37,929 bases of DNA from a virus. The notes beneath the pieces were generated by a model. It was not told where the DNA came from and searched no databases. It worked only from the letters and a program-made list of their open reading frames with translations. The stretch lies in the IMG/VR virus record IMGVR_UViG_3300032219_000648; one strand, written 5' to 3'. Within the stretch, counting starts at the first letter, position 1, and every line of letters begins with the position of its first letter. This document shows positions 1 to 37,929 of this stretch, piece after piece. Made by a program: the position numbers and the translations under genes.

Positions 1-123
1 ATCCCGGCGACTATAAGGTCTATACGAAAGGCAAGTAATGGCCAAGAAGAGTGGTGTTAAAGATATGTCGTGGCGGCCGCAGCCGAAAGCTAAACGTCGC
101 CACAAACCCGACGGGCTTCGCCA
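1..123. repeat. Terminal direct repeat copy 1 (identical to 37807-37929); circular-closure overlap or terminal redundancy
   Basis: I compared the two ends base by base; 123/123 are identical. Bases 1-38 duplicate the 3' end of the 1056-aa gene. Confidence 0.95.
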
Positions 124-3712: not shown

Positions 3713-5616
3713 TTCCGATACCTCTTTCCTTCTTTGCCCTCGGCGTTGATCGGGCAGCCTTCGGCCCATGCAGGAACTTGTGTCATGATGTCAATCATTT
3801 CATCGAGCGAACCGAAATCATCCGGCACTTCGCAGATGATTTCATCGTGGACGGACAGGATTACGTTGTAGCCTTTAAGTTCCAACGCCATCATGGCCGT
3901 GGCCATCATGTCGCGGGCGGTTGCTTGCACCACGTTCTCCGTCAGTAGACCGCCCCAGATAATCTGGGATGTCCACTGTCGCGTCACACTATTCAGCGTA
4001 TCGACTTGGGCTGTGTCGCGCATAGCCCCCCAAGGTGTCTCTCGCTGAATGATGCGCGGATTGTGGTATGTAAGCAACCGCCCGCTAGGTAGTGGAAGCT
4101 TGACCGACCCAACACGGCCAGCGTCCTTCACCATCTCTACAAAATCATTCTCAACATCGCGCCAGTATTGCGCGATCCGGTTATTCTTTTCACGGTAGAC
4201 GGCCACGATGCGCTTAGCTTCGTCCTCGTCCACCCTGATCCCCATACTGGCGCACTGTTCGGCAAAGCGTTTGCCGCCCATGCCATAGCCGCAACCCAAG
4301 ATTGCCATCTTACCAACCTGCCGCTGTCCGTCAGTGACGCTATCCACGCCCACGTTGTAGATGGCCGATGCCATTTCTTTATACACGTCTCCCCCCTTTC
4401 GGAACGTCTCAACGAGATCGCTCTGCCCTGCTACCCACGCAAGAACGCGGGCTTCAATCGCCGAGTAGTCGGCGAACATAAGACGGTGGCCCTCATCGGC
4501 TACCAGCATCGAGCGCAACAGGTCGGACGCTAGGACCGTTCCGGCCCCATGTTGCGACACATCCTCGCCCGCTTTAAGTTTGGCGATGATTTCGTCCAAC
4601 TCGTCTTGTTTCTTTTGCGGACGGGGGAAGTTCTGTGGCTGCACCAACTTGCCCGACCAGCGGCCAGTCGCAGCGCCATGATAGACAAGAAGGCCGCGCA
4701 TCCGTCCGTCCGCGTTCACCGCGTGCAGCATCGCATCATACTTGGCTGTGCTGGACTTGGCTCCGTTCTGCCGGAGTTTCAGAACCTCACGGATTACAGG
4801 ATGCAATCGGTCAAAAGATAACAGCCGACCAACGGTTTGTTTGTCAACAGACTTGGCGCGGATGCCATGCGCGTTTAGCCACGCGGTCAAGTCCATCGCA
4901 TTTGTTGCGGCTTTGACTTGGCCTTTGGTGAGGCGTTGGATTTCCGCGTCAATCTCTAGGCTGGCGTTGTTCGCCAGTTCCTTAACGCGATGCACTAAGT
5001 CAACGTCGAGGCCCACGCCCCGGTCGTTGATGCGCTGATCGAGTTGATACAGACGGCGCTCACTGTCGGGCATTGCGTGCAGTGTCTCTGCGACCGACAG
5101 TTCCGTCCGCACGTCCTGTCGGCAATACGCTACAAGCGCATCAAGTTTATCCTTGGTGTTCCACCATGTGTAGCTGCCGTCGGCGTTCACCTTACGCGGC
5201 CGTGCCATCCGGAGCATAAGGGCCGCGCCGGTTTTGTCCTTCTGTTCTTCAACGCCAAGGACCGCAGCCGCTTGGCCTAGTGAACGGGGCAGACCCATCG
5301 CGCTGGCCTGCGCCATCGTGCAGCGCCATTGCTTAATGTTGGTGCGGGGCCATTGATAACGGCCGACCATGATCTCGTTCCAGATTGTGCGCTCGAAGTT
5401 GGCATTCCATGCCGAGAGCAATCCGCCTGCTATGATCCAGTCTTCAAGGTAGGCATCCATCTCATCGCCCGGCAACCATACCTGCACGTCGTCAGACCAC
5501 GGGGCCTTGTAGGCCATGCACCAGATGTCGGTCGATGGGTCAGAGGCGTACTTATAGACGCCCGTTTTGCGGAGATCGACGGCGCTGCGCGTCTCGAAGT
5601 CAACCGATACAATCAC
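3709..5616 (-). CDS. Family A DNA polymerase with 3'-5' exonuclease domain
   Basis: Exo I VDFETRS, Exo III YCRQDV, motif A FADYSAIEARVLAW, motif B RQVGKMAILGCGYG, motif C LSVHDEIICEV. I prefer GTG 5616 as start because it gives MIVSVDFE (compare T7 MIVSDIE) and forms a GTGA overlap with the upstream stop. The track alternative is 5628. Confidence 0.95.
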   Translation of the reverse strand: MIVSVDFETRSAVDLRKTGVYKYASDPSTDIWCMAYKAPWSDDVQVWLPGDEMDAYLEDWIIAGGLLSAWNANFERTIWNEIMVGRYQWPRTNIKQWRCTMAQASAMGLPRSLGQAAAVLGVEEQKDKTGAALMLRMARPRKVNADGSYTWWNTKDKLDALVAYCRQDVRTELSVAETLHAMPDSERRLYQLDQRINDRGVGLDVDLVHRVKELANNASLEIDAEIQRLTKGQVKAATNAMDLTAWLNAHGIRAKSVDKQTVGRLLSFDRLHPVIREVLKLRQNGAKSSTAKYDAMLHAVNADGRMRGLLVYHGAATGRWSGKLVQPQNFPRPQKKQDELDEIIAKLKAGEDVSQHGAGTVLASDLLRSMLVADEGHRLMFADYSAIEARVLAWVAGQSDLVETFRKGGDVYKEMASAIYNVGVDSVTDGQRQVGKMAILGCGYGMGGKRFAEQCASMGIRVDEDEAKRIVAVYREKNNRIAQYWRDVENDFVEMVKDAGRVGSVKLPLPSGRLLTYHNPRIIQRETPWGAMRDTAQVDTLNSVTRQWTSQIIWGGLLTENVVQATARDMMATAMMALELKGYNVILSVHDEIICEVPDDFGSLDEMIDIMTQVPAWAEGCPINAEGKEGKRYRK

Positions 5617-11430: not shown

Positions 11431-11584
11431 ATAGTGCGTTGAAGCCGACGGGCCATGCGTTGGCGGGCTTGTCGGTTTTCGTTATTTTATATTGTGAACC
11501 GCCATAGCGAATACGGGCCGTGCGTTCGTTCTCGTATATGCCGACGGACCGACCCGTCTTGAGGTTGGTGACTTCGTAGTTCAT
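11429..11584 (-). CDS. Hypothetical protein, 51 aa (MNYEVTNLKTGRSVGIYENERTARIRYGGSQYKITKTDKPANAWPVGFNAL)
   Basis: AGGGAAG SD 5 nt upstream and its own sigma70-type promoter at 11641-11669. Below the track cutoff. Confidence 0.6.
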   Translation of the reverse strand: MNYEVTNLKTGRSVGIYENERTARIRYGGSQYKITKTDKPANAWPVGFNAL

Positions 11585-11640
11585 ATTTTCTTCCCTTTTA
11601 AAAAGCGGTCGGAGGGTTGGCCCTCTCGATCCGCGTTTGC

Positions 11641-11669
11641 ATTATGGAACAATGTTCCGGTCTTGTCAA
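11641..11669 (-). promoter_or_regulatory. Sigma70-type promoter TTGACA-N17-CATAAT with a GGAAC-N3-GTTCC operator in the spacer
   Basis: On the minus strand: TTGACA (11669-11664), a 17-nt spacer, CATAAT (11646-11641). The palindrome GGAACAATGTTCC (11646-11658) fills the spacer. A 10-bp palindrome CTAATATTAG lies just upstream (11673-11682). Confidence 0.6.
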
Positions 11670-11715
11670 GTGCTAATATTAGGGCCGAAGTGGACCTAAC
11701 TTGGCTTGAGATAAA

Positions 11716-12001
11716 ATCCGTGCACGGTTTGAGAGGGTCCGTGCATGGTTGGTGCACGGTTTAGGGCCGGATAAAATGGCTGAAATCTAAGGATGTGCCG
11801 GAAGTGCACGGTTTAAAAAAGTTAATCCGCTCTTACGACAGTAACAGTGTTAGAAGTGGTCATATTACAATGTTACTTACTTATGGGAACCAATGCGCCG
11901 ACAAACCGTGCACTCCGTGCACATTGGCGGAAATGCGTGGGTAAACCCGGCCCTAAACCCGGCCCGAACCGTGCACGGAGATATGCAAACCGTGCACGGA
12001 T
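11716..12001. repeat. 286-bp modular imperfect palindrome (axis 11858/11859) built from GTGCACGG(TTT) and other boxes around an AT-rich core
   Basis: Mirrored box pairs: 11716-11730/11987-12001 (15/15), 11738-11750/11967-11979 (12/13), 11758-11770/11947-11959 (13/13), 11793-11798/11919-11924 (6/6), 11801-11814/11903-11916 (13/14), 11841-11850/11867-11876 (9/10). The spacers between boxes match at only 2-5 of 10 positions. Confidence 0.9.
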
Positions 12002-12013
12002 GGCAGTTTTCCG

Positions 12014-12541
12014 TTAATCGTCGTCAAAAACACCCGGCAAGTCGTCCGCATCGAGGTTATGAGAGCCGACTTGCTTGGTTGGTGTGATGTCGATGACTTC
12101 TGGTTCATCGGCGTCGAGGGTATGTGGATTTGATGACGCCAAGTTTAGCTGGCGCAGTGCATCAAGGTGGAGTTGGTTCACGTTGACTTGGACCGCTGTG
12201 GTCGGCTTGGCTTGGAACTTCTCTGGTGCTGCAACGCCAGCCAGCCACTTGCGTGTTTCAATCTTGAGCCTGTCAGCATTGGCCGATGTGTTGTCCGAGG
12301 CATCGGCAATGTCGAGGCACTCATCTGCCCATTGGTCAGCCGCGATTGCCCGCGCCTGTTTAAACCGCTCCTCCCGATCCGGGTCTTTGCGTATCCAATG
12401 ATAGAGCGACAGGTTGCTGATGTTCAATTCACGAGCGAGGCCAGCCATTGTCAGGCCGGAAGCAATCTTCTCCAGCAGAACAGTCTCGCCAACCTTATCT
12501 AAGTTTGACGCAATCGTGCGCCGTTTAATATGTCCAGCCAT
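12014..12541 (-). CDS. terS: Terminase small subunit, Sf6 gp1-like
   Basis: HTH region GLTMAGLARELNISNLSLYHWIRKDPDREERFKQARAIAADQWADECLDIADAS ... RLKIETRKWLAGVAAPEKF parallels Sf6 gp1 (FRWLAKHEDFRDKYAKATEARAD...IADNA...RLRVDTRKWALARMNPRKYG) as I recall it. AAGGA SD. Confidence 0.75.
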   Translation of the reverse strand: MAGHIKRRTIASNLDKVGETVLLEKIASGLTMAGLARELNISNLSLYHWIRKDPDREERFKQARAIAADQWADECLDIADASDNTSANADRLKIETRKWLAGVAAPEKFQAKPTTAVQVNVNQLHLDALRQLNLASSNPHTLDADEPEVIDITPTKQVGSHNLDADDLPGVFDDD

Positions 12542-12552
12542 GTCTTATCCTT

Positions 12553-12597
12553 TATATGCCTCTAGAAGCCCATATAAAGCCCATAGAGAGGCATATA
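12553..12597. promoter_or_regulatory. 11-bp inverted repeat in the HTH-terS intergenic gap
   Basis: TATATGCCTCT (12553-12563) and AGAGGCATATA (12587-12597) with a 23-nt loop containing GCCCATA twice. It ends 6 nt from the terS SD on the minus-strand transcript. Confidence 0.5.
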
Positions 12598-12629
12598 GGG
12601 CGATTGCTAGGTAACTATCCCGATTGTAG

Positions 12630-12809
12630 CTATGCACGCTCCAGACCCCTTAAAAACGTCTCTAAGAGGATAGAGACTGGAGCGGGGACTGAACGGCCAC
12701 CTTGTTCATAGTATCTGATCGACCTTTCGGACAGTCCTATCTTGTAGGCAAGCTGCCCTTGCGTTAGCTTCAGCCTCTCGCGTGTTGCTTTAAATTCTTC
12801 ACTTGTCAT
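12630..12809 (-). CDS. Cro/XRE-family helix-turn-helix protein, 59 aa
   Basis: LKLTQGQLAYKIGLSERSIRYYEQGGRSVPAPVSILLE is a canonical HTH_3 pattern. ATGA-coupled to the upstream ORF. Below the track cutoff. Confidence 0.75.
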   Translation of the reverse strand: MTSEEFKATRERLKLTQGQLAYKIGLSERSIRYYEQGGRSVPAPVSILLETFLRGLERA

Positions 12810-12976
12810 TTGCTTTGTTCCTCAAGTCCGCGCCGGATGCCCTGCTCAACGAGGCGCATCCAGATTGTGTGGTCCCAACCGCCGGACAGATATAGCTGCC
12901 CATCGCTGTTGTCCTGCTTTTCGCATTGAGCCGCGCAAATTTGCCGTGCGGCGTGTGTTATTTCTTTATCGGTCAT
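12806..12976 (-). CDS. Hypothetical protein, 56 aa
   Basis: ATGA overlaps at both ends and an AAGGA SD. Below the track cutoff. Confidence 0.55.
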   Translation of the reverse strand: MTDKEITHAARQICAAQCEKQDNSDGQLYLSGGWDHTIWMRLVEQGIRRGLEEQSK

Positions 12977-13176
12977 GCTTCATCCTTTAGCGCCTTTTCG
13001 GCGTCCTCAATTAATTCGATGGGTGGGTAGCGCAGATAGGACACATGGTCTTTGCCTATCACGCCAAGCATCTCAAGAAACTCCATCAAGCGATAGGCCA
13101 AGGTTTCCCCGGCCCGTTCGATGTATCGTTCGGGCAGTGCCAATTCGTCGTCCTCATCGTCGTCGTAGTAGGTCAT
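12973..13176 (-). CDS. Strongly acidic hypothetical protein, 67 aa
   Basis: MTYYDDDEDDELALPE... By my count 19 D/E versus 7 K/R. ATGA overlaps at both ends. Confidence 0.65.
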   Translation of the reverse strand: MTYYDDDEDDELALPERYIERAGETLAYRLMEFLEMLGVIGKDHVSYLRYPPIELIEDAEKALKDEA

Positions 13177-13310
13177 TTGCTTTGTTCCTTTTCACGTTCT
13201 GCGCGGCGTTCGGCAAAGGTCTTGCCATCGAGGCCGCGCAGCGGCCAAGCATCGTCTGACGATACGCGGTGGTTCCGGCCCATTGGCGCGGCTTGCTGTG
13301 GTTTAATCAT
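13173..13310 (-). CDS. Hypothetical protein, 45 aa
   Basis: The start at 13310 is preceded by the conserved cassette CAAAAGGAGCATAAC. The track start at 13367 lacks an SD. Confidence 0.5.
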   Translation of the reverse strand: MIKPQQAAPMGRNHRVSSDDAWPLRGLDGKTFAERRAEREKEQSK

Positions 13311-13330
13311 GTTATGCTCCTTTTGTTTTG

Positions 13331-13759
13331 TTAAACTATTTCCAGGCCATTGCCGCCGGATTGCCAAGGGATATTGCGAAACTTGAACGATCCGCCGTTC
13401 TGACCGACAAGGCGGTATACTGGCACTGAATAACGGCTTACTTGGTCAAAGCCGCACAATTCAAAATGACTAGGCCATTCGATAACGTCCGCATAATCGG
13501 CCAGTCGCTTTGCGTAGCGTTTGCTTTGCAGAAGCTTGATGCCGCTGTCGTGCAACTCGCCGACAACTTTAGGGCAGTCGCGGTCAATCATGGCAAGCGC
13601 CAGATATATATCATCACCCGCTGCCCTAGGGCAGGTCGCGCTAACCGATAGTCCGGCGCGGCGGCGACCCTCGGCGTTGAGGGCTTTGCGTAAGCCAATG
13701 ATGTTTGTTTTCGTGACGCTGCCGCTGGCGATTGCGTCAATATGTTTTTGGAATGTCAT
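13331..13759 (-). CDS. Hypothetical protein, 142 aa
   Basis: The start at 13759 is preceded by the identical CAAAAGGAGCATAAC cassette. No motif recognised. Confidence 0.7.
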   Translation of the reverse strand: MTFQKHIDAIASGSVTKTNIIGLRKALNAEGRRRAGLSVSATCPRAAGDDIYLALAMIDRDCPKVVGELHDSGIKLLQSKRYAKRLADYADVIEWPSHFELCGFDQVSRYSVPVYRLVGQNGGSFKFRNIPWQSGGNGLEIV

Positions 13760-13760
13760 G

Positions 13761-13958
13761 TTATGCTCCTTTTGCTTTAGTGATTGCGGTTTCGATGGTG
13801 TCGCGGACATCCATCCATTCGGCGCGGTCAGTGTAGCCGCTCTTGCGAATGTATGCGGATGCCGCTTCTAGCGCCAACAACAAGTCAGGCGCGGCATCGT
13901 GCATCAGTTTGCGGCGGCGGTTGCGCTCTTGCGCGGCGGCGTAGTAATCAAAAGCCAT
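13761..13958 (-). CDS. Hypothetical protein, 65 aa
   Basis: Start preceded by GAGGGAAGCATAAC. Predicted helical with a basic centre. Confidence 0.65.
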   Translation of the reverse strand: MAFDYYAAAQERNRRRKLMHDAAPDLLLALEAASAYIRKSGYTDRAEWMDVRDTIETAITKAKGA

Positions 13959-13959
13959 G

Positions 13960-14049
13960 TTATGCTTCCCTCACTGTTTCAATGATTGCGTAGATCGATA
14001 GGGCCAAGACGCCCCAAAAGAATGCGTTGATTGCTATGTGGGCTGTCAT
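13960..14049 (-). CDS. 29-aa single-pass membrane peptide (MTAHIAINAFFWGVLALSIYAIIETVREA)
   Basis: ATGA overlap with the upstream stop. Hydrophobic core of about 20 aa. Below the track cutoff. Confidence 0.4.
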   Translation of the reverse strand: MTAHIAINAFFWGVLALSIYAIIETVREA

Positions 14050-14315
14050 GCTGCATCCGCTTCCATCATGTCGGCGTGATGTTCTGCCAGTGCGTCCCAA
14101 TCGACGCTGTTAAGGTCGAGCATATCCCAGATGAACCCTGCGCCTGTGCTTTCAAACCCAATAAATTCTCCAACGTAATTCTCAACGCTGTCGCGGCAAT
14201 ATTCTGGAGTAACATCTACACCGTCTTCGGTAGCTAAAGCCCAGCCATCGCCGAACCATAGGTTTACAGTCCAAGTGGCTGCATTGCGCCATCCGTTGCA
14301 TGAAATATCTGTCAT
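14046..14315 (-). CDS. Acidic hypothetical protein, 89 aa
   Basis: NGWRNAATWTVNLWF motif. About 18 D/E versus 2 K/R. Preceded by the conserved 39-nt leader with an AGGAG SD. Confidence 0.7.
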   Translation of the reverse strand: MTDISCNGWRNAATWTVNLWFGDGWALATEDGVDVTPEYCRDSVENYVGEFIGFESTGAGFIWDMLDLNSVDWDALAEHHADMMEADAA

Positions 14316-14396
14316 AGTTTCTCACTCCTATTATTGGCACTAGCGCCATAAATGCCGCGCAAGGTTAGTTGCGCGGCTAATATGGTGTTAGGCTGC
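14311..14396. repeat. Intergenic junction cassette, copy A (stop context, GC hairpin, 39-nt conserved leader)
   Basis: 14311-14349 matches 14542-14579 with a single 1-nt indel. Hairpin GCCGCGCAA/TTGCGCGGC at 14354-14377. GGTGTTAGGCTGC at 14384-14396 recurs at 14609-14621. Confidence 0.85.
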
Positions 14397-14546
14397 AAGC
14401 CATTCGTCATATGACAGCAGCGGTTGCCCGTTGCGGGTTATGTCGCCGCCCTTGCCGTCATTCGCGCACGATAGATAAATCTGATACTCGCTATCGTTGT
14501 CGCCGCGATAGCTGGTCTGCCAGAATTGTTCACGTTCAGTAGTCAT
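14388..14546 (-). CDS. Hypothetical protein, 52 aa
   Basis: Preceded by copy B of the conserved leader (AGGAG SD). Ends with AA-stop like the upstream gene. Below the track cutoff. Confidence 0.55.
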   Translation of the reverse strand: MTTEREQFWQTSYRGDNDSEYQIYLSCANDGKGGDITRNGQPLLSYDEWLAA

Positions 14547-14621
14547 AGTTTCTCACTCCTTTATTGGCACTAGCGCCATCCTCGCGGCGGATTGCTCCGC
14601 CGTCCGGTGGTGTTAGGCTGC
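14542..14621. repeat. Intergenic junction cassette, copy B
   Basis: Same architecture as 14311-14396. Hairpin GCGGCGGA-TTGC-TCCGCCG at 14584-14602. Confidence 0.85.
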
Positions 14622-14963
14622 TTCTCCCCATGCGATTGCAGCTTGCGTCCGAACATGTGGTGGCAAACATTGCAGCTTACAGGCGATATTGAGAGCGATT
14701 ACCATTGTGCCACAATCAGAGCCAATAAAGAGCGCCTTCTCGTATGGCGTCATATCATCCCGGCCGATGATGTCGTATGCGCTCAGACAGGCCTTAAATG
14801 ACGCCATGGCACCTTGACGCGCTCTCTCATTAGGGGTGAGCATGGCAGACGTATCGTGCACCTCCGCCTGTTGAATTAGGGCTGTGCGGAATGTTTCATC
14901 ATGGCAGACTATCGACCGTTCAATGATGTCGCGGGCTGTCGGATTGGCTGGCAAACTATACAT
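14613..14963 (-). CDS. Hypothetical protein, 116 aa
   Basis: ATG 14963 has an AGGAG SD 8 nt upstream. The track start at 14972 is a GTG abutting the SD. Confidence 0.7.
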   Translation of the reverse strand: MYSLPANPTARDIIERSIVCHDETFRTALIQQAEVHDTSAMLTPNERARQGAMASFKACLSAYDIIGRDDMTPYEKALFIGSDCGTMVIALNIACKLQCLPPHVRTQAAIAWGEAA

Positions 14964-14985
14964 ATTATTCACTCCTATTGGTTGG

Positions 14986-15159
14986 TTAAAGCACGTTCAA
15001 ACGAGCGCGGGCAGCATCTTCTTTTTCTGCCCATGTCTTAAGGCGAAGCAGCTTGGCGATCAGTCTGTCGCGCTCGTTATTGGCATGGGTGTCGGTGGAT
15101 TTTTCACCAGCCAATATGCCTGCAAGATAGGCAGCTTCTGTTTGCGTTAGATATTCCAT
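14986..15159 (-). CDS. Hypothetical protein, 57 aa
   Basis: ATG 15159 has an AAGGAGAG SD. The track start at 15192 is less likely. Confidence 0.6.
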   Translation of the reverse strand: MEYLTQTEAAYLAGILAGEKSTDTHANNERDRLIAKLLRLKTWAEKEDAARARLNVL

Positions 15160-15160
15160 G

Positions 15161-15274
15161 TTACTCTCCTTCTTTATCGTTACGACTAGCAAATGCTAAA
15201 CCAGCCAACATGCAAACAACCCATATGAATGCAAACACATTGAATGGAATATACTGTGATAAATCAAAAGCCAT
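15161..15274 (-). CDS. 37-aa membrane peptide (MAFDLSQYIPFNVFAFIWVVCMLAGLAFASRNDKEGE), first gene of the leftward early operon
   Basis: AGAGGGA SD 6 nt upstream. Hydrophobic core. Below the track cutoff. Confidence 0.45.
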   Translation of the reverse strand: MAFDLSQYIPFNVFAFIWVVCMLAGLAFASRNDKEGE

Positions 15275-15304
15275 TGTCAGTCCCTCTTTGCTATTGAGGT
15301 GTTA

Positions 15305-15435
15305 ACAATAGGAACATTGTTCTGGTTAGTAAAAATATATAATTTTATTGATTGGTAAAAAATAGTAACCAATCAAATCACATTAGAATGTGAATTGCCT
15401 CACCCTATAATATAATTGTGCAGGAACATGGTTCC
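15305..15435. promoter_or_regulatory. Divergent early control region with two GGAAC-N3-GTTCC operator copies and candidate leftward/rightward promoters
   Basis: O2 is GGAACATTGTTCT (15311-15323), lying inside a minus-strand TTACTA-N16-TATTGT. O3 is GGAACATGGTTCC (15423-15435), just downstream of a plus-strand TTAGAA-N17-TATAAT (15383-15411). The AT-rich core carries TTGATTGGT-N11-ACCAATCAA (15348-15376). Confidence 0.45.
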
Positions 15436-15511
15436 GCTTTATGGTGGTGGATAGAGAGCGCCGGGTTTCGTTTCTTGCGCGTCTCCGAACCCATTCGGTC
15501 GCATACTAATA

Positions 15512-15743
15512 CACTGTTACAGTCTGAAACCCGCAGAAATGCGTTAGTTTTTGAGCCGGGGAGGGGTGGTGGCATTTAAATTTGACCCCCCCCGCCCCGG
15601 TCTTGCGCGGGGGGCGCGTGCGCACAACCTGACAGACATCGAGGTGTGCCCCCACCCCCCGTACTCCTTTATTTTTGATCCCCCAGCCAAAAAAAATTTC
15701 TAACTTTTTGCTTGCCAAGTTGTAACAATAGAGTGTAACAGTG
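15512..15743. repeat. 13/14 inverted repeats bracketing a 204-bp structured, homopolymer-rich noncoding segment upstream of the recombinase
   Basis: CACTGTTACAGTCT (15512-15525) versus the reverse complement of AGAGTGTAACAGTG (15730-15743). The interior has an imperfect hairpin at 15556-15600 with an ATTTAAAT loop, plus C8, G6, C5, C6 and A8 runs and the palindrome GTGCGCAC. Confidence 0.6.
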
Positions 15744-15771
15744 ATGCACAACAACAAACGGGAGAAATACG

Positions 15772-16452
15772 TTGGCAGTTTATGGATACACTCGCGTCTC
15801 GACTGAAGACCAGATTGAGAACACATCGCTCGATGATCAAGCCCGCCAAATCCAAGGCATCGCGCTCACACATAATTTGGAACTGGACCATATATATGAA
15901 GAGCGTGGCGTCTCTGGCGGCGTCCCGCTGCTCCGCCGAGAAGAAGGCTGCAAGCTGGCGTTCCTACGGCCGGGCGATACCGTCATCGTATCGAAGCTGG
16001 ACCGTATGTTTCGCGATGCGAGAGACGCACTAAACGTGATTGCCGACTGGGAGACGGCGAACATTAATCTCATCATCAACGGCTACGGCAATGTGATGGA
16101 CAAGGCCAACCCGAACGGCCGCTTCATGCTAGAGATCATGGCCGTCTTCGCCGGGGAAGAGCGCCGCCGTATCAGAGAACGTGTCACCGCCGGTAAGAGA
16201 GCCAAGCGTTCGCAGGGCGGATATGTCGGCGGCAAAGTGCCATTTGGGTTTAAGAAGTCAGGCACAGGCCGCAAGGCCAAGCTGCACCCAGAACCAAATG
16301 CGCAGGACGCGCTAATTACAATGAAAGCCGCACGCGTTAAAGGTCATAGCTACCGCGATATTGCTATTATCGTAGCAAAGCGTCATGGTATATCAGTTAG
16401 CCATCAAACAATCGCACGCGTAATCCGGGGAGATAAGAATGACGAAATCTGA
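15772..16452 (+). CDS. Small serine recombinase (resolvase/invertase family) with C-terminal HTH
   Basis: YGYTRVSTEDQ (catalytic Ser), VSKLDRMFRD, EERRRIRERVTAG, and C-terminal HTH SYRDIAIIVAKRHGISVSHQTIARVIR. TTG start with a GGGAGA SD. The 3' end overlaps terL by 14 nt. Confidence 0.9.
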   Translation: MAVYGYTRVSTEDQIENTSLDDQARQIQGIALTHNLELDHIYEERGVSGGVPLLRREEGCKLAFLRPGDTVIVSKLDRMFRDARDALNVIADWETANINLIINGYGNVMDKANPNGRFMLEIMAVFAGEERRRIRERVTAGKRAKRSQGGYVGGKVPFGFKKSGTGRKAKLHPEPNAQDALITMKAARVKGHSYRDIAIIVAKRHGISVSHQTIARVIRGDKNDEI

Positions 16453-17848
16453 GCCGAACTTCTTTTTAGAGTTCCTGAAGAAATACCGCGATGATCCTGT
16501 AGGGTTCGTGCGGGATATTCTGAGAACTAAGCCAGACCCTTGGCAAGTCGAGTTTCTGAAAGCGATCAGCGCCGGGAACCGTCGTATTTCCGTTCGCTCA
16601 GGCCACGGCGTCGGCAAATCGACAGCCGCAAGCTGGGCCATGCTGCATTACTTTCTGACGCGGTATCCGGTAAAGGTCGTTGTGACTGCGCCGACATCCG
16701 CACAGTTGTTCGATGCGATGTTCGCGGAACTGAAGCGATGGGTGAATGAACTGCCCGAAGTGCTGAAGGTTCTGATCGAAGTCAAGACCGACCGTATTGA
16801 ATTGAAGGCCGCAGCCAGTGAAGCCTTTATCTCCGCCAGAACGAGCCGAGCAGAAACGCCAGAAGCCTTGCAGGGTATCCACGCCGACAACGTGCTGCTC
16901 GTCGCAGACGAAGCGTCCGGTATTCCCGAAAGTGTGTTTGAAGCTGCGTCCGGTTCTATGTCCGGTCACAATGCGACGACGCTTCTTCTGGGCAACCCAA
17001 CGCGAAACACTGGATTATTCTACGATACGCACAACCGCTTAAAGGGTGAATGGAAGACCTTCCACGTTAGCTGCCTCGACAGCCCACGCGTATCCGATGC
17101 GTTCGTCCGAGAGATGCAGTTGCGGTACGGCGAAGACAGCCCGGCCTACCATGTCCGTGTCCTTGGTAACTTCCCGCCGCGTGAAGAAGATACCGTCATC
17201 CCGGTCGAGTTGATCGACAGCGCCATGAACCGCGAGATTAAGATCGCCAAGCAAACGAAAAGTGTGTGGGGCCTAGACGTGGCGCGTATGGGTTCCGACG
17301 CTTCCGCCCTCGCCAAGCGGCGTGGGCCGGTCGTTGAGGAGATACAGACTTGGAAAGGTCTGGACCTAATGCAGCTAACCGGCGCAGTCGTAGCCGAGTT
17401 TGAGGCGCTGCCGCCATCGGAACAGCCGGTCGAGATATTGGTCGATAGCATCGGGTTGGGGGCGGGTGTGCTTGACCGTCTGCGCGAACTGGGTCTGCCA
17501 GCGCGAGGGATCAACGTGGCGGAAAGCCCCGCGCTGAAAGGAACTTACGCCAACCTACGCGCCGAGTTGTGGTTCAAATGCAAAGGGTGGCTGGCGAACC
17601 GCGATGTTAAGATACCGAAGGATGAGCAGTTGTTCGCCGAGTTGGCGTCACCGCGCTACACCTTTACCTCGTCGGGCAAGATGCAGGTGGAGAGCAAGGA
17701 GAGTATGAAGAAGCGCGGGCTTCCGTCACCAGACAAGGCGGACGCTTTGTGTCTATGTCTGGCCACCGACCTGTCAACGATTATGCACGGATATTCGATG
17801 GCCAACAAGTCCGGCGCGTTGCGTCGAAATATAAAAGGTGTAGTTTGA
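16439..17848 (+). CDS. terL: Terminase large subunit
   Basis: Walker A-like RSGHGVGKST, Walker B LLVADEASGI, and nuclease-domain acidic motifs (WGLDVARMGSD, ILVDSIGLG, SPDKADAL). Confidence 0.9.
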   Translation: MTKSEPNFFLEFLKKYRDDPVGFVRDILRTKPDPWQVEFLKAISAGNRRISVRSGHGVGKSTAASWAMLHYFLTRYPVKVVVTAPTSAQLFDAMFAELKRWVNELPEVLKVLIEVKTDRIELKAAASEAFISARTSRAETPEALQGIHADNVLLVADEASGIPESVFEAASGSMSGHNATTLLLGNPTRNTGLFYDTHNRLKGEWKTFHVSCLDSPRVSDAFVREMQLRYGEDSPAYHVRVLGNFPPREEDTVIPVELIDSAMNREIKIAKQTKSVWGLDVARMGSDASALAKRRGPVVEEIQTWKGLDLMQLTGAVVAEFEALPPSEQPVEILVDSIGLGAGVLDRLRELGLPARGINVAESPALKGTYANLRAELWFKCKGWLANRDVKIPKDEQLFAELASPRYTFTSSGKMQVESKESMKKRGLPSPDKADALCLCLATDLSTIMHGYSMANKSGALRRNIKGVV

Positions 17849-18068: not shown

Positions 18069-18491
18069 GTGGAAACAAAGACTTGTGTGACATGCGGCGG
18101 AGAGAAGCCCCTTGATGACTTTTACCCCCGAAGACGCTCCTGTAAGTCATGCGTGCGCGAACACCAACGCCGTTTCAGAAACGCCCAGCCAGACTATAAC
18201 CGCGCTCACAATCTCCAAAAGCGTTATGGTATAAGCGTCGATGAGTATAAAACTCTCCTCGCCAACCATAATTTTGCTTGCGCTATTTGTAAGGTAGAAA
18301 TACCTGACGCATTAGGTTATAAGGGCGGAGGATCAGGTGTCGTAGATCATAACCACGAAACGGGTGATGTGCGCGGCATATTATGTTCAAAGTGTAATTT
18401 AGTTCTTGGCCACGCACGAGAGAGTACGGATATTCTTTATCAGGCCATTGTGTACTTGAGTGAGCGCGGCGCGTATACGCCAAAGAAATAG
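18069..18491 (+). CDS. Endonuclease VII family (T4 gp49-like / HNH-related) nuclease
   Basis: CAICKVE...VVDHNHETGDVRGILCSKCNLVLG is the Endonuclease_7 signature. N-terminal CxxC...CxxC zinc ribbon. GTG start. Confidence 0.85.
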   Translation: METKTCVTCGGEKPLDDFYPRRRSCKSCVREHQRRFRNAQPDYNRAHNLQKRYGISVDEYKTLLANHNFACAICKVEIPDALGYKGGGSGVVDHNHETGDVRGILCSKCNLVLGHARESTDILYQAIVYLSERGAYTPKK

Positions 18492-18501
18492 GTTTGATTG
18501 C

Positions 18502-18792
18502 ATGGTTGCGAAGCGTTTTCAAAATCCGAAGGGCGGCCTCAATGCAGCGGGGCGTAGCCACTTCAAGAAGACCGAAGGGGCCAACTTGAAAGCGCCTGTT
18601 AAATCAGGGGATAATCCACGGAGGGCATCATTCTTAGCGCGTATGGGCAATATGCCGGGGCCGGAGCGTAATGCGAAAGGCGAACCAACCCGCCTTCTCT
18701 TATCTCTGCAAGCGTGGGGTGCGTCATCTAAAGCAGACGCGAAGTCCAAAGCCAAAGCCATATCAGCCCGAAACAAGGGGAAGTCAAAATGA
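18502..18792 (+). CDS. Small basic protein, 96 aa (KGGLNAAGR...NLKAPV...PRRASFLARM family)
   Basis: I recall this conserved pattern from small proteins of aquatic phages. ATG 18502. The track start at 18460 overlaps the upstream gene. Confidence 0.6.
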   Translation: MVAKRFQNPKGGLNAAGRSHFKKTEGANLKAPVKSGDNPRRASFLARMGNMPGPERNAKGEPTRLLLSLQAWGASSKADAKSKAKAISARNKGKSK

Positions 18793-18941
18793 AGATGGGT
18801 CTATACAGCAACATCGCGGCCAAGAAGGCACGGATAAAAGCTGGTTCTGGCGAAAAGATGCGTAAGCCGGGGACGAAAGGCGCTCCTACTGCGGCCGCAT
18901 TTAAGGCTGCCGCGAAAACCGCAAAGGGTAAAAAGAAATGA
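18789..18941 (+). CDS. Small Lys/Ala-rich basic protein, 50 aa
   Basis: ATGA overlaps at both ends. MKMGLYSNIAAKKARIKAGSGEKMRKPGTKGAPT... Below the track cutoff. Confidence 0.55.
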   Translation: MKMGLYSNIAAKKARIKAGSGEKMRKPGTKGAPTAAAFKAAAKTAKGKKK

Positions 18942-19114
18942 AGAAACCTACTAAGGCCGACAAGAAGATTGCTAAGGTCATGGGCGAATATAAGCGTGGC
19001 ACATTGCACGCTGGCGTGAACCCTAAAGGCCCCGCAAAGGCTCCCTTGGCTAAATCGCGTAAACAGGCTATAGCTATTGCCCTGTCCGAAGCTGGAAAGT
19101 CGAAAAAGAAATAA
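18938..19114 (+). CDS. Small basic protein, 58 aa (DUF6496-like SRKQAIAIALSEA motif)
   Basis: KVMGEYKRGTLHAG...KSRKQAIAIALSEAGK. ATGA and TAATG coupling. Below the track cutoff. Confidence 0.6.
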   Translation: MKKPTKADKKIAKVMGEYKRGTLHAGVNPKGPAKAPLAKSRKQAIAIALSEAGKSKKK

Positions 19115-37600: not shown

Positions 37601-37844
37601 CGCTAAGTTCAACGCGGAGAACCCAGAACTTGCTTTGCTAAAGAAGTTTAAGGGCATGAACCGCGAAGAGAAGATCATGCTCAACCGCCAAATTGAAAGC
37701 ACCACGGGCATGACGGCCGATACATTGTTACGTCAGTTGAGCAAGGCCCCCCTTATCAAGAGCCAAGAACAATTTGACGCACTTCCTGTCGGCACTCAAT
37801 ACACTGATCCCGGCGACTATAAGGTCTATACGAAAGGCAAGTAA
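34674..37844 (+). CDS. Large internal virion/DNA-ejection protein, 1056 aa
   Basis: Largest ORF and last gene of the late operon. It contains a 2 x 32-aa tandem duplication. No catalytic motif recognised by eye. Confidence 0.6.
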   Translation: MAETKPKGAPVFLEIPATGETITLPGVTSLNSNDELKAAADAWIAKNYKGPLLAAPVVARTPVEGETQGILPGEEIKVTANRQPELKAYVPDTFAGSILDAIASGVTNVAGFLPGFDERGAVQYGQDVRSNIETLLGLEGTERSFRDIAAGRGTGEDYLIAGLTAAPFAAVGLKAGAKRIAPEFSATVSRLATGPVAVADEIAAAVPETALSPEMAAVATPITPAPVVPSTLPRAQAVELPEAPATGTRAASRGKFTFDDLLEAPVAAAAIPEAAPLTGTGAVSKGKFTFDDLLEAPEAAVIPEAAVVPRNVAYDLPPSTPGTGIPAIEAMQVKGQTQPVPTAEIGGKVANFAADYSSLAGLQRPADMPFSEFFYRHFKAGTLPEEEVSKLVTKHDLKDEDLFELITGSRQGLGDAARVMQRFSIASRYVPKEAADIAKLGLQEADDLGFWKRFTNVYRGALVSSVATTMRNVISSVGRVPIDAATNLMDSAVNAAANPFRQQKVGVSPFDAAALLTDRFAPGRNAKFWEQMKNVQPEINKELAATYAADVARVTKKDAFAKVEKAVDVANLLNRVSETATRKALFPVMLRREATRLGLDFNELVATDGMARLPDEAWTKALDDTLGFTYSARSEVADKFSQMLDKMGKVGTVARVVGTTIMPFPRFMMNAMKFQFDYSPAGFTKLLTEAERAKFAKGDVSAVSKAIVGSAMLYGAYQFRNSENAGEKWYEAKLPDGRTVDLRPFFPAAPYLLIADVIKRSQDNTLDQAFETKDILQGLSGAQFRAGTGLYVTDQLLKDLSGASGNLDKAKTITTSWLADVGAGFLQPFSTFKDFYAQYDPEEAVYRDTKDNPLGALVRPIPGAQQALGIPAAPSATREGPLTTEDPALRQLLGATIRPVKNIVESELDKLGLTPYDVGSKTGEIAIDRLVNRDLGIIAERGIAPLLQSPEYQNLDNVGKSAAIKEIYSKAREAANAKFNAENPELALLKKFKGMNREEKIMLNRQIESTTGMTADTLLRQLSKAPLIKSQEQFDALPVGTQYTDPGDYKVYTKGK
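35412..35603 (+). repeat. 2 x 96-bp in-frame tandem duplication inside the 1056-aa gene
   Basis: The units start at 35412 and 35508. The 35-nt core GGAAAGTTTACGTTTGATGATTTACTTGAAGCCCC is identical in both copies and encodes GKFTFDDLLEAP. Confidence 0.9.
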
Positions 37845-37929
37845 TGGCCAAGAAGAGTGGTGTTAAAGATATGTCGTGGCGGCCGCAGCCGAAAGCTAAA
37901 CGTCGCCACAAACCCGACGGGCTTCGCCA
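37807..37929. repeat. Terminal direct repeat copy 2 (identical to 1-123)
   Basis: See copy 1. It contains the last 38 nt of the 1056-aa gene and the first 86 nt of the 43-aa ORF. Confidence 0.95.

Follow-up and report, generated by a model that had tools for sequence, protein, structure and literature searches.

The 37,929-nt virus genome stored as IMG/VR record IMGVR_UViG_3300032219_000648, analysed over its whole length and called the window here, encodes a small serine recombinase directly upstream of the gene for the large terminase subunit (TerL), and copies of one short motif precede the recombinase gene. With moderate confidence, we regard these repeats as the cognate, res-like and probably autoregulatory sites of an intact recombinase, which keep a fixed orientation and do not form an invertible switch. 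Two observations from sequence comparison lead to this reading: the motif copies are conserved among related phages, and they change together with the recombinase helix that would recognize them. The features concerned are:

15772-16452, plus strand: small serine recombinase of 226 amino acids (PF00239); TTG start codon at 15772, with GGGAG 7 nt upstream
15511-15525, minus strand: left copy L, ACACTGTTAC (equal to TGTAACAGTG on the minus strand), a single half-site ~260 nt upstream of the recombinase start
15721-15744, plus strand: right copies R1 (TGTAACAATA) and R2 (TGTAACAGTG), head-to-tail direct repeats 13 bp apart

That a resolvase/invertase-type serine recombinase of this size lies upstream of terL had been noted in the initial annotation of the window, and is borne out by the match of the protein to PF00239 (E=1e-30, residues 3-150) and by its intact catalytic residues; none of Y6, R8, S10, D69, D77, R78, R81, E130 and R137 varies among 35 aligned homologues, which extend down to 39% identity. 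The start codon, TTG in the window, is ATG at the same position in relatives. Within PHROG, the best match is PHROG 95 ('integrase'), accompanied by PHROG 125 ('DNA invertase'). An AlphaFold2 model of the protein (predicted local distance difference test, pLDDT, 90) comprises the resolvase catalytic domain, a long helix E (114-147), a beta-hairpin (160-173) and three further helices (175-189, 194-205 and 211-219), and the protein has the composition of small serine recombinases, with a PF00239 catalytic domain, helix E and a small C-terminal helix-turn-helix domain in ~180-230 residues. Its best fold match is Bxb1 integrase, over all 226 residues, followed by gamma-delta, Tn3, Sin and Gin, the latter being the best sequence match among solved structures. 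Judged by its active-site residues, the protein is an intact resolvase-type serine recombinase, for which strand exchange itself is predicted. In the model, the DNA-binding domain resembles the start of the 'recombinase domain' of large serine recombinases, and the protein is too short to accommodate their zinc ribbon and coiled coil.

Relatives of the recombinase are encoded on 129 IMG/VR stretches, with identities of 78-99% among the 80 that were kept. In the closest of these, the protein is 96-99% identical, compared to only 89-96% for the first 330 nt of the gene together with the 28 nt upstream, indicating that the recombinase is under purifying selection. In other clades with the SU10-type portal and terL in common, this position is held by homologues of 66-79% and 41-47% identity, and across the entire range of the phage family, from 41 to 99%, the gene is always found near terL or terS, the gene for the small terminase subunit (TerS). 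By these comparisons, the recombinase is a long-standing, conserved gene of the family and no stray insertion.

The initial annotation had placed the repeats correctly in every coordinate. CACTGTTACAGTCT (15512-15525) and its inverted copy AGAGTGTAACAGTG (15730-15743), which agree in 13 of 14 positions, bracket 204 nt; 28 nt separate the right arm from the TTG start codon, and TGTAACA is directly repeated at 15721 and 15734. By our own arithmetic, a 13/14 inverted repeat within 600 bp is expected ~0.03 times locally and ~2 times genome-wide, in agreement with the caution about chance matches that had accompanied the prediction, and the inverted repeat alone is thus weak evidence. The exact 9-mer GTAACAGTG occurs three times, with an expectation of 0.15 and with none of 100 shuffled sequences reaching this number, and all three copies fall into two non-coding stretches; when one mismatch is allowed, no enrichment is seen (8 matches vs 5.2 expected). 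It is conservation, rather than chance statistics, that lends the repeats real support as sites. When the upstream regions of 61 distinct relatives are aligned, the cores CTGTTACA and TGTAACAG are near-invariant (left box CTAATACACTGTTACA, right box CTTGCCAAnnTGTAACAnTAnnnTGTAACAG), and the 204-bp interior between the arms is only 72-85% identical. The 14-nt repeat as initially described is present in the window, but its conserved part covers no more than ~8-10 bp, the outer arm bases varying among relatives. Moreover, the left arm lacks a partner half-site, and the right side consists of two head-to-tail copies without an inverted pair.

The motif differs between clades of the phage family, and all of its copies differ together. 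In clade A, to which the window belongs, TGTAACAGTG is found at about -260, -50 and -37 and at a distal site described below. In clade B, with recombinases of 66-79% identity, TGTTAAGGCG or its counterpart CGCCTTAACA is found at about -282, -49 and -27: the equivalent of the left site (about -282) reads CGCCTTAACA(G/C), the equivalent of the right site is a 34-bp palindrome, TGTTAAGGCG-N14-CGCCTTAACA, and clusters of four to six clade-B motifs beside the 3' end of terS correspond to the distal site. Since all copies within a genome change in concert, we infer that a single sequence-specific protein with clade-dependent specificity reads all of them. The recognition helix of the recombinase follows the same pattern, with SHQT(I/V)(A/Y)R accompanying motif A and SH(V/I)(T/S)(V/I)R(R/K) accompanying motif B. 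An intermediate helix, SHMTVSR, goes along with TGTAAC/TGTAAG sites in relative L096, and a natural hybrid, L095 (IMGVR_UViG_3300032087_002115, positions 4420-4500), combines a clade-A-type GTGTTACAGTG next to a clade-B-type TGTTAAGGCGTT, both upstream of the recombinase, with the likewise intermediate helix SHVTVSR. The recombinase is the only helix-turn-helix protein that always adjoins the sites and changes with them, and from these comparisons it is the most likely binder of the motif. Two bacterial homologues in non-phage contexts, L087 and L088, also carry TGTC-type repeats directly upstream of their genes; in L088, a 26-bp palindrome, TGTCAGCTTGC-TAAA-GCAAGTTGACA, lies over a TTGACA -35 hexamer, and two direct repeats precede the start codon. 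Upstream sites are thus a trait of the recombinase subfamily. The unrelated genomic islands in which these homologues reside contain tyrosine integrases and are uninformative on the role of the enzyme in phages.

The right-hand copies coincide with a putative promoter, and a conserved element separates them from the left copy:

15709-15717, plus strand: -35-like element TTGCTTGCCA (TTGCCA at 15712-15717) of the putative recombinase-terL promoter, with an A/T tract upstream
15582-15661, no strand assigned: G/C-tract element C8..C4..G6..GTGCG..ACAGACA..C5AC6, between the left and right sites

Clades A, B and C share a -35-like hexamer (TTGCCA, TTGCAG or TTGACA), which is preceded by an A/T tract and is equally far from the start codon in all of them, and acceptable -10 hexamers follow 17 bp downstream in clades B and C. 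In the window, motif copies cover the region 17-19 bp downstream of the hexamer and R2 occupies the -10 position, so that binding at R1/R2 would overlap the core promoter. By analogy to the Tn3 and gamma-delta resolvases, this suggests autoregulation of the putative recombinase promoter. A res-like autoregulatory site, one of three hypotheses put forward in the initial annotation, is hence the reading that we favour, as the repeats covary with the recombinase helix and overlap the putative -35/-10 region.

Within the G/C-tract element, the blocks C8, G6, ACAGACA and C5AC6 are kept even where the recombinase is only 43-47% identical. The element could serve to bind an architectural protein, act as a terminator or insulator, or adopt a structure at the DNA level; its minus strand carries four G-runs (G6, G5, G4 and G8). 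A structured-RNA or antitermination leader was rejected, as RNAalifold, run on 74 copies, returned four invariant C-G pairs and no covariation. Rfam yielded no credible match, either over the whole window at gathering thresholds or over the intergenic region at E up to 5, and its matches to IS128 (21 bits vs a threshold of 80 bits) and HSUR are due to chance. Further to the left, two overlapping rightward TATAAT hexamers (15406-15416) are followed by a hairpin, GGAACATGGTTCC, at 15423-15435, and a box shared by clades A and B, CCTCCGAACCCATTTGGTC, lies just left of the L site; the region 15406-15511 may give rise to a short rightward transcript that ends at the T-run at 15547-15552.

The third exact copy of the 9-mer belongs to a distal site, which is embedded in a larger palindrome:

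11840-11877, no strand assigned: distal full palindromic site AGTAACAGTGT-N16-ACAATGTTACT, two facing half-sites, 137 nt downstream of the terS stop codon
11716-12001, no strand assigned: ~290-bp palindrome, centred on 11858/11859, with an AT-rich centre and eight boxes CCGTGCACGG(TTT), four per side

As had been described initially, GTAACAGTG recurs at 11841-11849, with a mirror copy of one mismatch at 11868-11876, in the exact centre of the large palindrome. The paired site is kept as AGTAACAGTGT-N14-16-ACA(A/C)TGTTACT in 17 distinct relatives, several of which have perfect 11/11 arms. The surrounding palindrome, whose arms match over 55 nt at 80% and over 22 nt at 86%, lies between terS and two small leftward open reading frames (ORFs) and looks like a bidirectional replication origin. 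Its boxes are not TerS sites, given that relatives with near-identical TerS carry a different box, GCGTCCC or GTGTCCC. An ORF at 11581-11757, which overlaps the left palindrome arm, may be spurious.

On the reading that the repeats are sites of the recombinase, we propose the following mechanism. The C-terminal helix-turn-helix of the enzyme would recognize the 10-bp half-site (T/A)GTAACAGTG. Head-to-tail R1 and R2 would cover the -10 of the recombinase-terL promoter, and their occupancy would throttle the operon, while the inverted copy L, 222 bp upstream across the G/C element, could allow occupied sites to loop the intervening DNA. The palindrome at 11840-11877 is the only complete site of two half-sites in the genome and would be the likeliest place of strand exchange. 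By recombining copies of this palindrome between sister genomes or in concatenates, the enzyme would determine the multimer state of the replicated DNA or circularize it for the terminase. Control of multimer state or circularization seems the most coherent purpose, because a lytic-looking phage keeps the enzyme beside its terminase genes. We would tentatively extend this to a family of lytic phages in which the enzyme sets the topology of the replicated genome at the palindrome of the origin, either by fusing monomer circles into multimers or by circularizing and resolving, which would give the terminase DNA that it can package, and in which the same enzyme inverted the neighbouring module in the course of evolution; this is possible, yet we consider it doubtful. 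A double-rolling-circle model of the Flp/2-micron type was rejected, since packaged DNA should then contain the module in both isomers, which are not seen.

Several points weigh against the repeats being res-like, autoregulatory sites of the recombinase. Binding and recombination are predicted from the comparison of sequences, and helix and motif follow the same clades, so that common descent confounds their association. The layout of the sites fits no characterized res, the gene-proximal copies in this clade being single half-sites distributed across ~230 bp. Close relatives have distal-palindrome spacers of 14, 15 or 16 bp, which sits uneasily with the fixed 2-bp stagger of a crossover site. 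The -10 in the window is poor, and a scan of 14900-16000 for consensus promoters found none (the same region contains four terminator-like hairpins, none of which is used in our argument). It would also be odd to repress an operon that encodes terL and the portal as well, unless further promoters exist, and a multimer-to-monomer resolvase that is co-expressed with the terminase would oppose the packaging of concatemers.

The two terminase genes of the phage bear on several of the alternative explanations:

16439-17848, plus strand: TerL (PF03237), with 59-89% identity within the family; its first 14 nt overlap the end of the recombinase gene
12014-12541, minus strand: Sf6-type TerS (PF20901, E=2e-16; PHROG 1482), present in all clades, the genuine TerS of the phage

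The initial annotation had located the real TerS homologue on the other strand, which is confirmed, and had assigned the recombinase to the terS slot. In this clade, the 14-nt overlap with terL accords with such a slot, but it is not maintained in distant relatives, where an HNH gene (L082 and L083) or several small ORFs (L084-L086) intervene between recombinase and terL. In L084 and in MW202879, terS is co-directional with the recombinase gene and directly upstream of it. The recombinase itself was rejected as a TerS, since it matches no TerS family and the separate TerS is conserved.

The possibility that recombination inverts DNA in this region can be examined in contigs of related phages. 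In an invertible promoter or leader switch, the first of the initial hypotheses, the recombinase would flip the 204-bp segment, as Hin does at hix, and so toggle recombinase-terL expression. An inverted repeat of 13/14 that brackets non-coding DNA beside a serine recombinase gene would suit such a switch, and so would the ends of ten out of 50 related-phage contigs inside 15505-15717, which coexisting orientations might cause. However, all ~60 viral contigs that contain the segment have it in the orientation of the window, and a 24-base pattern for the flipped-state junction was found in none of 241 million metagenome records, compared to 23 contigs for the parental left junction; as assemblies report the majority state, rare flipping could escape this contig-level test. 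In addition, the arms are single half-sites, the contig ends lie in the hypervariable, homopolymer-rich interior and not at the arms, and a flip would destroy rather than re-aim the promoter, with its -35 inside the segment and its -10 position in the right arm. As far as assemblies show, the switch is largely refuted, and we regard it as highly improbable. A cos or pac genome end in the G/C element was likewise rejected as the cause of the contig ends, which cluster equally in the other hypervariable zone, at ~11780-12300, near-full-length contigs ending elsewhere; strain microdiversity together with homopolymers is the simpler explanation. Also among the initial hypotheses was that recombination between the palindrome at 11.86 kb and the sites at 15.5/15.7 kb inverts or excises the leftward early/terS module, which measures 3.7 kb. 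The module does have inverted motif copies at its ends (11841 plus, 15512 minus) and direct copies at 15722 and 15735, the same arrangement recurs with the clade-specific motif in clade B, and inverting 11859-15515 would place terS co-directionally, just upstream of the G/C element and the recombinase. Direct support is nevertheless missing, all spanning contigs having the orientation of the window. Among 2.9 million viral contigs, no member of the family contains the recombinant junction AGTAACAGTGTATTAGT, the only match being an unrelated 180-kb contig, as opposed to 68 loci with the parental module junction, some of which are the same contig counted twice; this test detects only crossovers inside the shared core and misses those elsewhere. 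With a single half-site at 15.5 kb and with terS being lost upon excision, a programmed rearrangement of the module seems unlikely. A one-off, ancient inversion by the enzyme is plausible, given that un-inverting the module would recreate the order terS, G/C element, recombinase; the module ends carry inverted motif copies in both clades, and such an event would explain the co-directional terS of L084 and MW202879.

The motif copies could be operators of a different phage regulator, for example a repressor or late activator encoded in the variable leftward module or elsewhere, with the recombinase merely lying downstream of the regulated promoter. The overlap of the right-hand copies with the promoter fits this, and the distal copy in an origin-like element would suit a regulator of replication or late transcription; variable palindrome spacers and scattered half-sites are commoner in operators than in crossover sites, and clade C has a compact 15-bp palindrome, TTGACA-N3-TGTCAA, over the -35, which has the look of a classical operator. 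Yet the candidates for such a regulator fare poorly. The helix-turn-helix of TerS is identical in clades A and B and thus unchanged across motif types, and the XRE-type protein is replaced (~41-44% identical) or undetectable in relatives L078-L081, L073 and L052, which keep motif A. Boxes of the host LexA, CRP or ArcA type do not fit, and the change of the motif between clades argues for a phage-encoded binder. As only the recombinase consistently adjoins the sites and covaries with them, and as its non-phage bacterial homologues carry similar upstream repeats, we consider a different regulator conceivable, with a rather low probability. An integrase for lysogeny, with one of the sites as attP, is suggested by the best PHROG match, by the fold match to Bxb1 and by the lack of another integrase among the scanned ORFs (the remaining ORFs were not scanned). 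This is contradicted by the length of 226 residues, which leaves no room for zinc-ribbon and coiled-coil domains, and by a TerL-profile search across 185,579 species, one genome each, which found no prophage with the recombinase and only phage-sized contigs in metagenome-assembled genomes (MAGs). Distant prophages were recovered as well, but without the recombinase, and several of the bins were Burkholderiaceae, Polynucleobacter or Limnohabitans. Nor was a repressor/excisionase module found, the sole XRE-type protein being 59 residues long, and a role in lysogeny thus appears very unlikely to us. Finally, the recombinase could have been co-opted as a subunit for packaging specificity, of TerS or cosB type, with the repeats as a pac or cos site upstream of terL. 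Its position is that classically held by terS, with the 14-nt overlap, contig ends cluster in the region, and one inverted plus two direct copies recall the cosB of lambda, where R3 is inverted and R2 and R1 are direct. An Sf6-type TerS is conserved in every clade, however, and the terL overlap is not; an invariant catalytic serine and arginines would, moreover, not be retained in a purely DNA-binding protein. The chances of this explanation seem to us similarly slim.

The reading of the repeats as res-like recombinase sites invites comparison with characterized systems. With Tn3 and gamma-delta resolvases, the phage protein shares the catalytic domain family, with an intact YxRVS...DR..R...ER active site, and the layout classically associated with autoregulation, with sites immediately upstream of the gene that overlap its promoter, both being putative here. 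The half-sites likewise begin with TGT, and the dimer sites of 34-36 bp compare with the 34 bp of res site II; palindromes of this size with variable spacers, and head-to-tail repeats, resemble the sub-sites of Tn3 res and Sin resH. In contrast to res, there are not three paired sub-sites within ~120 bp: clade A has three single half-sites over 233 bp (15511-15744), and clade B has one 34-bp palindrome and one distant half-site. The only full palindrome in the window is located 3.9 kb from the gene, the genome is that of a lytic-looking phage and not a transposon, and the C-terminal domain includes, in the manner of large serine recombinases, a longer linker and an extra beta-hairpin. Sin (resH) and beta (six) offer a parallel to the head-to-tail R1 and R2 next to the gene, which recall Sin site II, the complex of Sin with site II (2r0q) being among the fold matches; the conserved DNA outside the motif could take up an architectural protein, as resH does with HU or IHF. 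In resH, however, the crossover site is ~30 bp from site II, whereas clade A is without a crossover-type site near R1/R2.

Like Hin, Gin and Cin, the protein is a small serine recombinase, in this case phage-encoded, with inverted copies of a short motif nearby, but the bracketed DNA is fixed, the arms lack 26-bp crossover sites of two half-sites, and no tail-fibre or promoter cassette is switched. The large serine integrases, such as Bxb1 and phiC31, provide the top fold match over 226 residues and share the 'GG..PFG(F/Y)' motif, the beta-hairpin and the helices, whereas the phage protein stops ~75 residues after helix E, without zinc ribbon and coiled coil; it has 226 residues, compared to about 450-700, and no prophages were found in the TerL-profile scan. 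A functional analogy exists to Cre-loxP of P1, which also combines a phage-encoded site-specific recombinase with a single palindromic target per genome. Cre-loxP circularizes terminally redundant DNA and resolves multimers, and a comparable role of the site at 11840-11877 is possible. Cre differs in being a tyrosine recombinase, and P1 in being a plasmid prophage; no plasmid-maintenance genes were found among the ORFs scanned here.

Among the serine recombinases of phages, the small ones are best known as tail-fibre invertases and the large ones as integrases. Here, a resolvase-type enzyme is a core gene of an abundant and apparently non-lysogenic family of freshwater podophages (>120 viral contigs). 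Should the enzyme manage multimer state or circularization, this would constitute a new solution by which circle-replicating phages supply the terminase with its substrate, and should it determine genome topology as proposed above, it would be a serine-recombinase counterpart of P1 Cre-loxP or of the dimers made by Int in lambda red- gam-. The pairs of helix and motif, SHQT.AR with TGTAACAGTG, SHVT.RR with TGTTAAGGCG and the natural hybrids, constitute a ready series for the study or engineering of the DNA specificity of serine recombinases. A literature search found no paper on this phage group or on a terminase-linked resolvase.

An identical stretch of 123 nt is present at both ends of the window (1-123 and 37807-37929), indicating that it represents a circularly assembled phage genome of ~37.8 kb with an arbitrary start. 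Besides the Sf6-type TerS, TerL, endonuclease VII and an SU10-type portal, its products include a DNA polymerase of family A, a primase-helicase of D5 type, an SNF2 helicase, a single-stranded-DNA-binding protein of Enc34 type and a DUF2800 nuclease. A tyrosine integrase, a partition gene and a lambda-type repressor were not found among the scanned ORFs, the remaining ORFs not having been scanned, and a scan of the window for tRNAs found none. The nearest GenBank record is MW202879, an uncultured freshwater phage whose similarity at the DNA level is confined to terL.

The leftward module (12541-15192), in the window as in relatives L002-L081, varies strongly in gene content even though the recombinases are 96-99% identical. 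It contains the 59-residue XRE-type protein, the gene for which is swapped or missing in some relatives; the distance between the distal palindrome and the recombinase ranges from ~2.2 to 3.9 kb, and contig ends accumulate at the borders of the module. Bins with the labels Burkholderiaceae, Polynucleobacter, Limnohabitans and Arenimonas contain the family phage contigs L157, L158, L163 and L165; since the binning of phage contigs into MAGs is unreliable, this points only weakly to hosts among freshwater Betaproteobacteria. Directly after terL, the window has a further gene:

18069-18491: endonuclease VII (Holliday-junction resolvase type)

In distant relatives, a VRR-NUC nuclease adjoining terS is found instead of endonuclease VII after terL. 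Further downstream, at 18789-19114, there are two tiny, lysine-rich ORFs of 50 and 58 residues, the first of which matches PHROG 16028. The DNA at ~18795-18945 is ~75% identical to that of otherwise unrelated phages of Pelagibacter, Octadecabacter, Prochlorococcus and Synechococcus, and in some Synechococcus phage records the match is located within an annotated ribonucleotide reductase gene.

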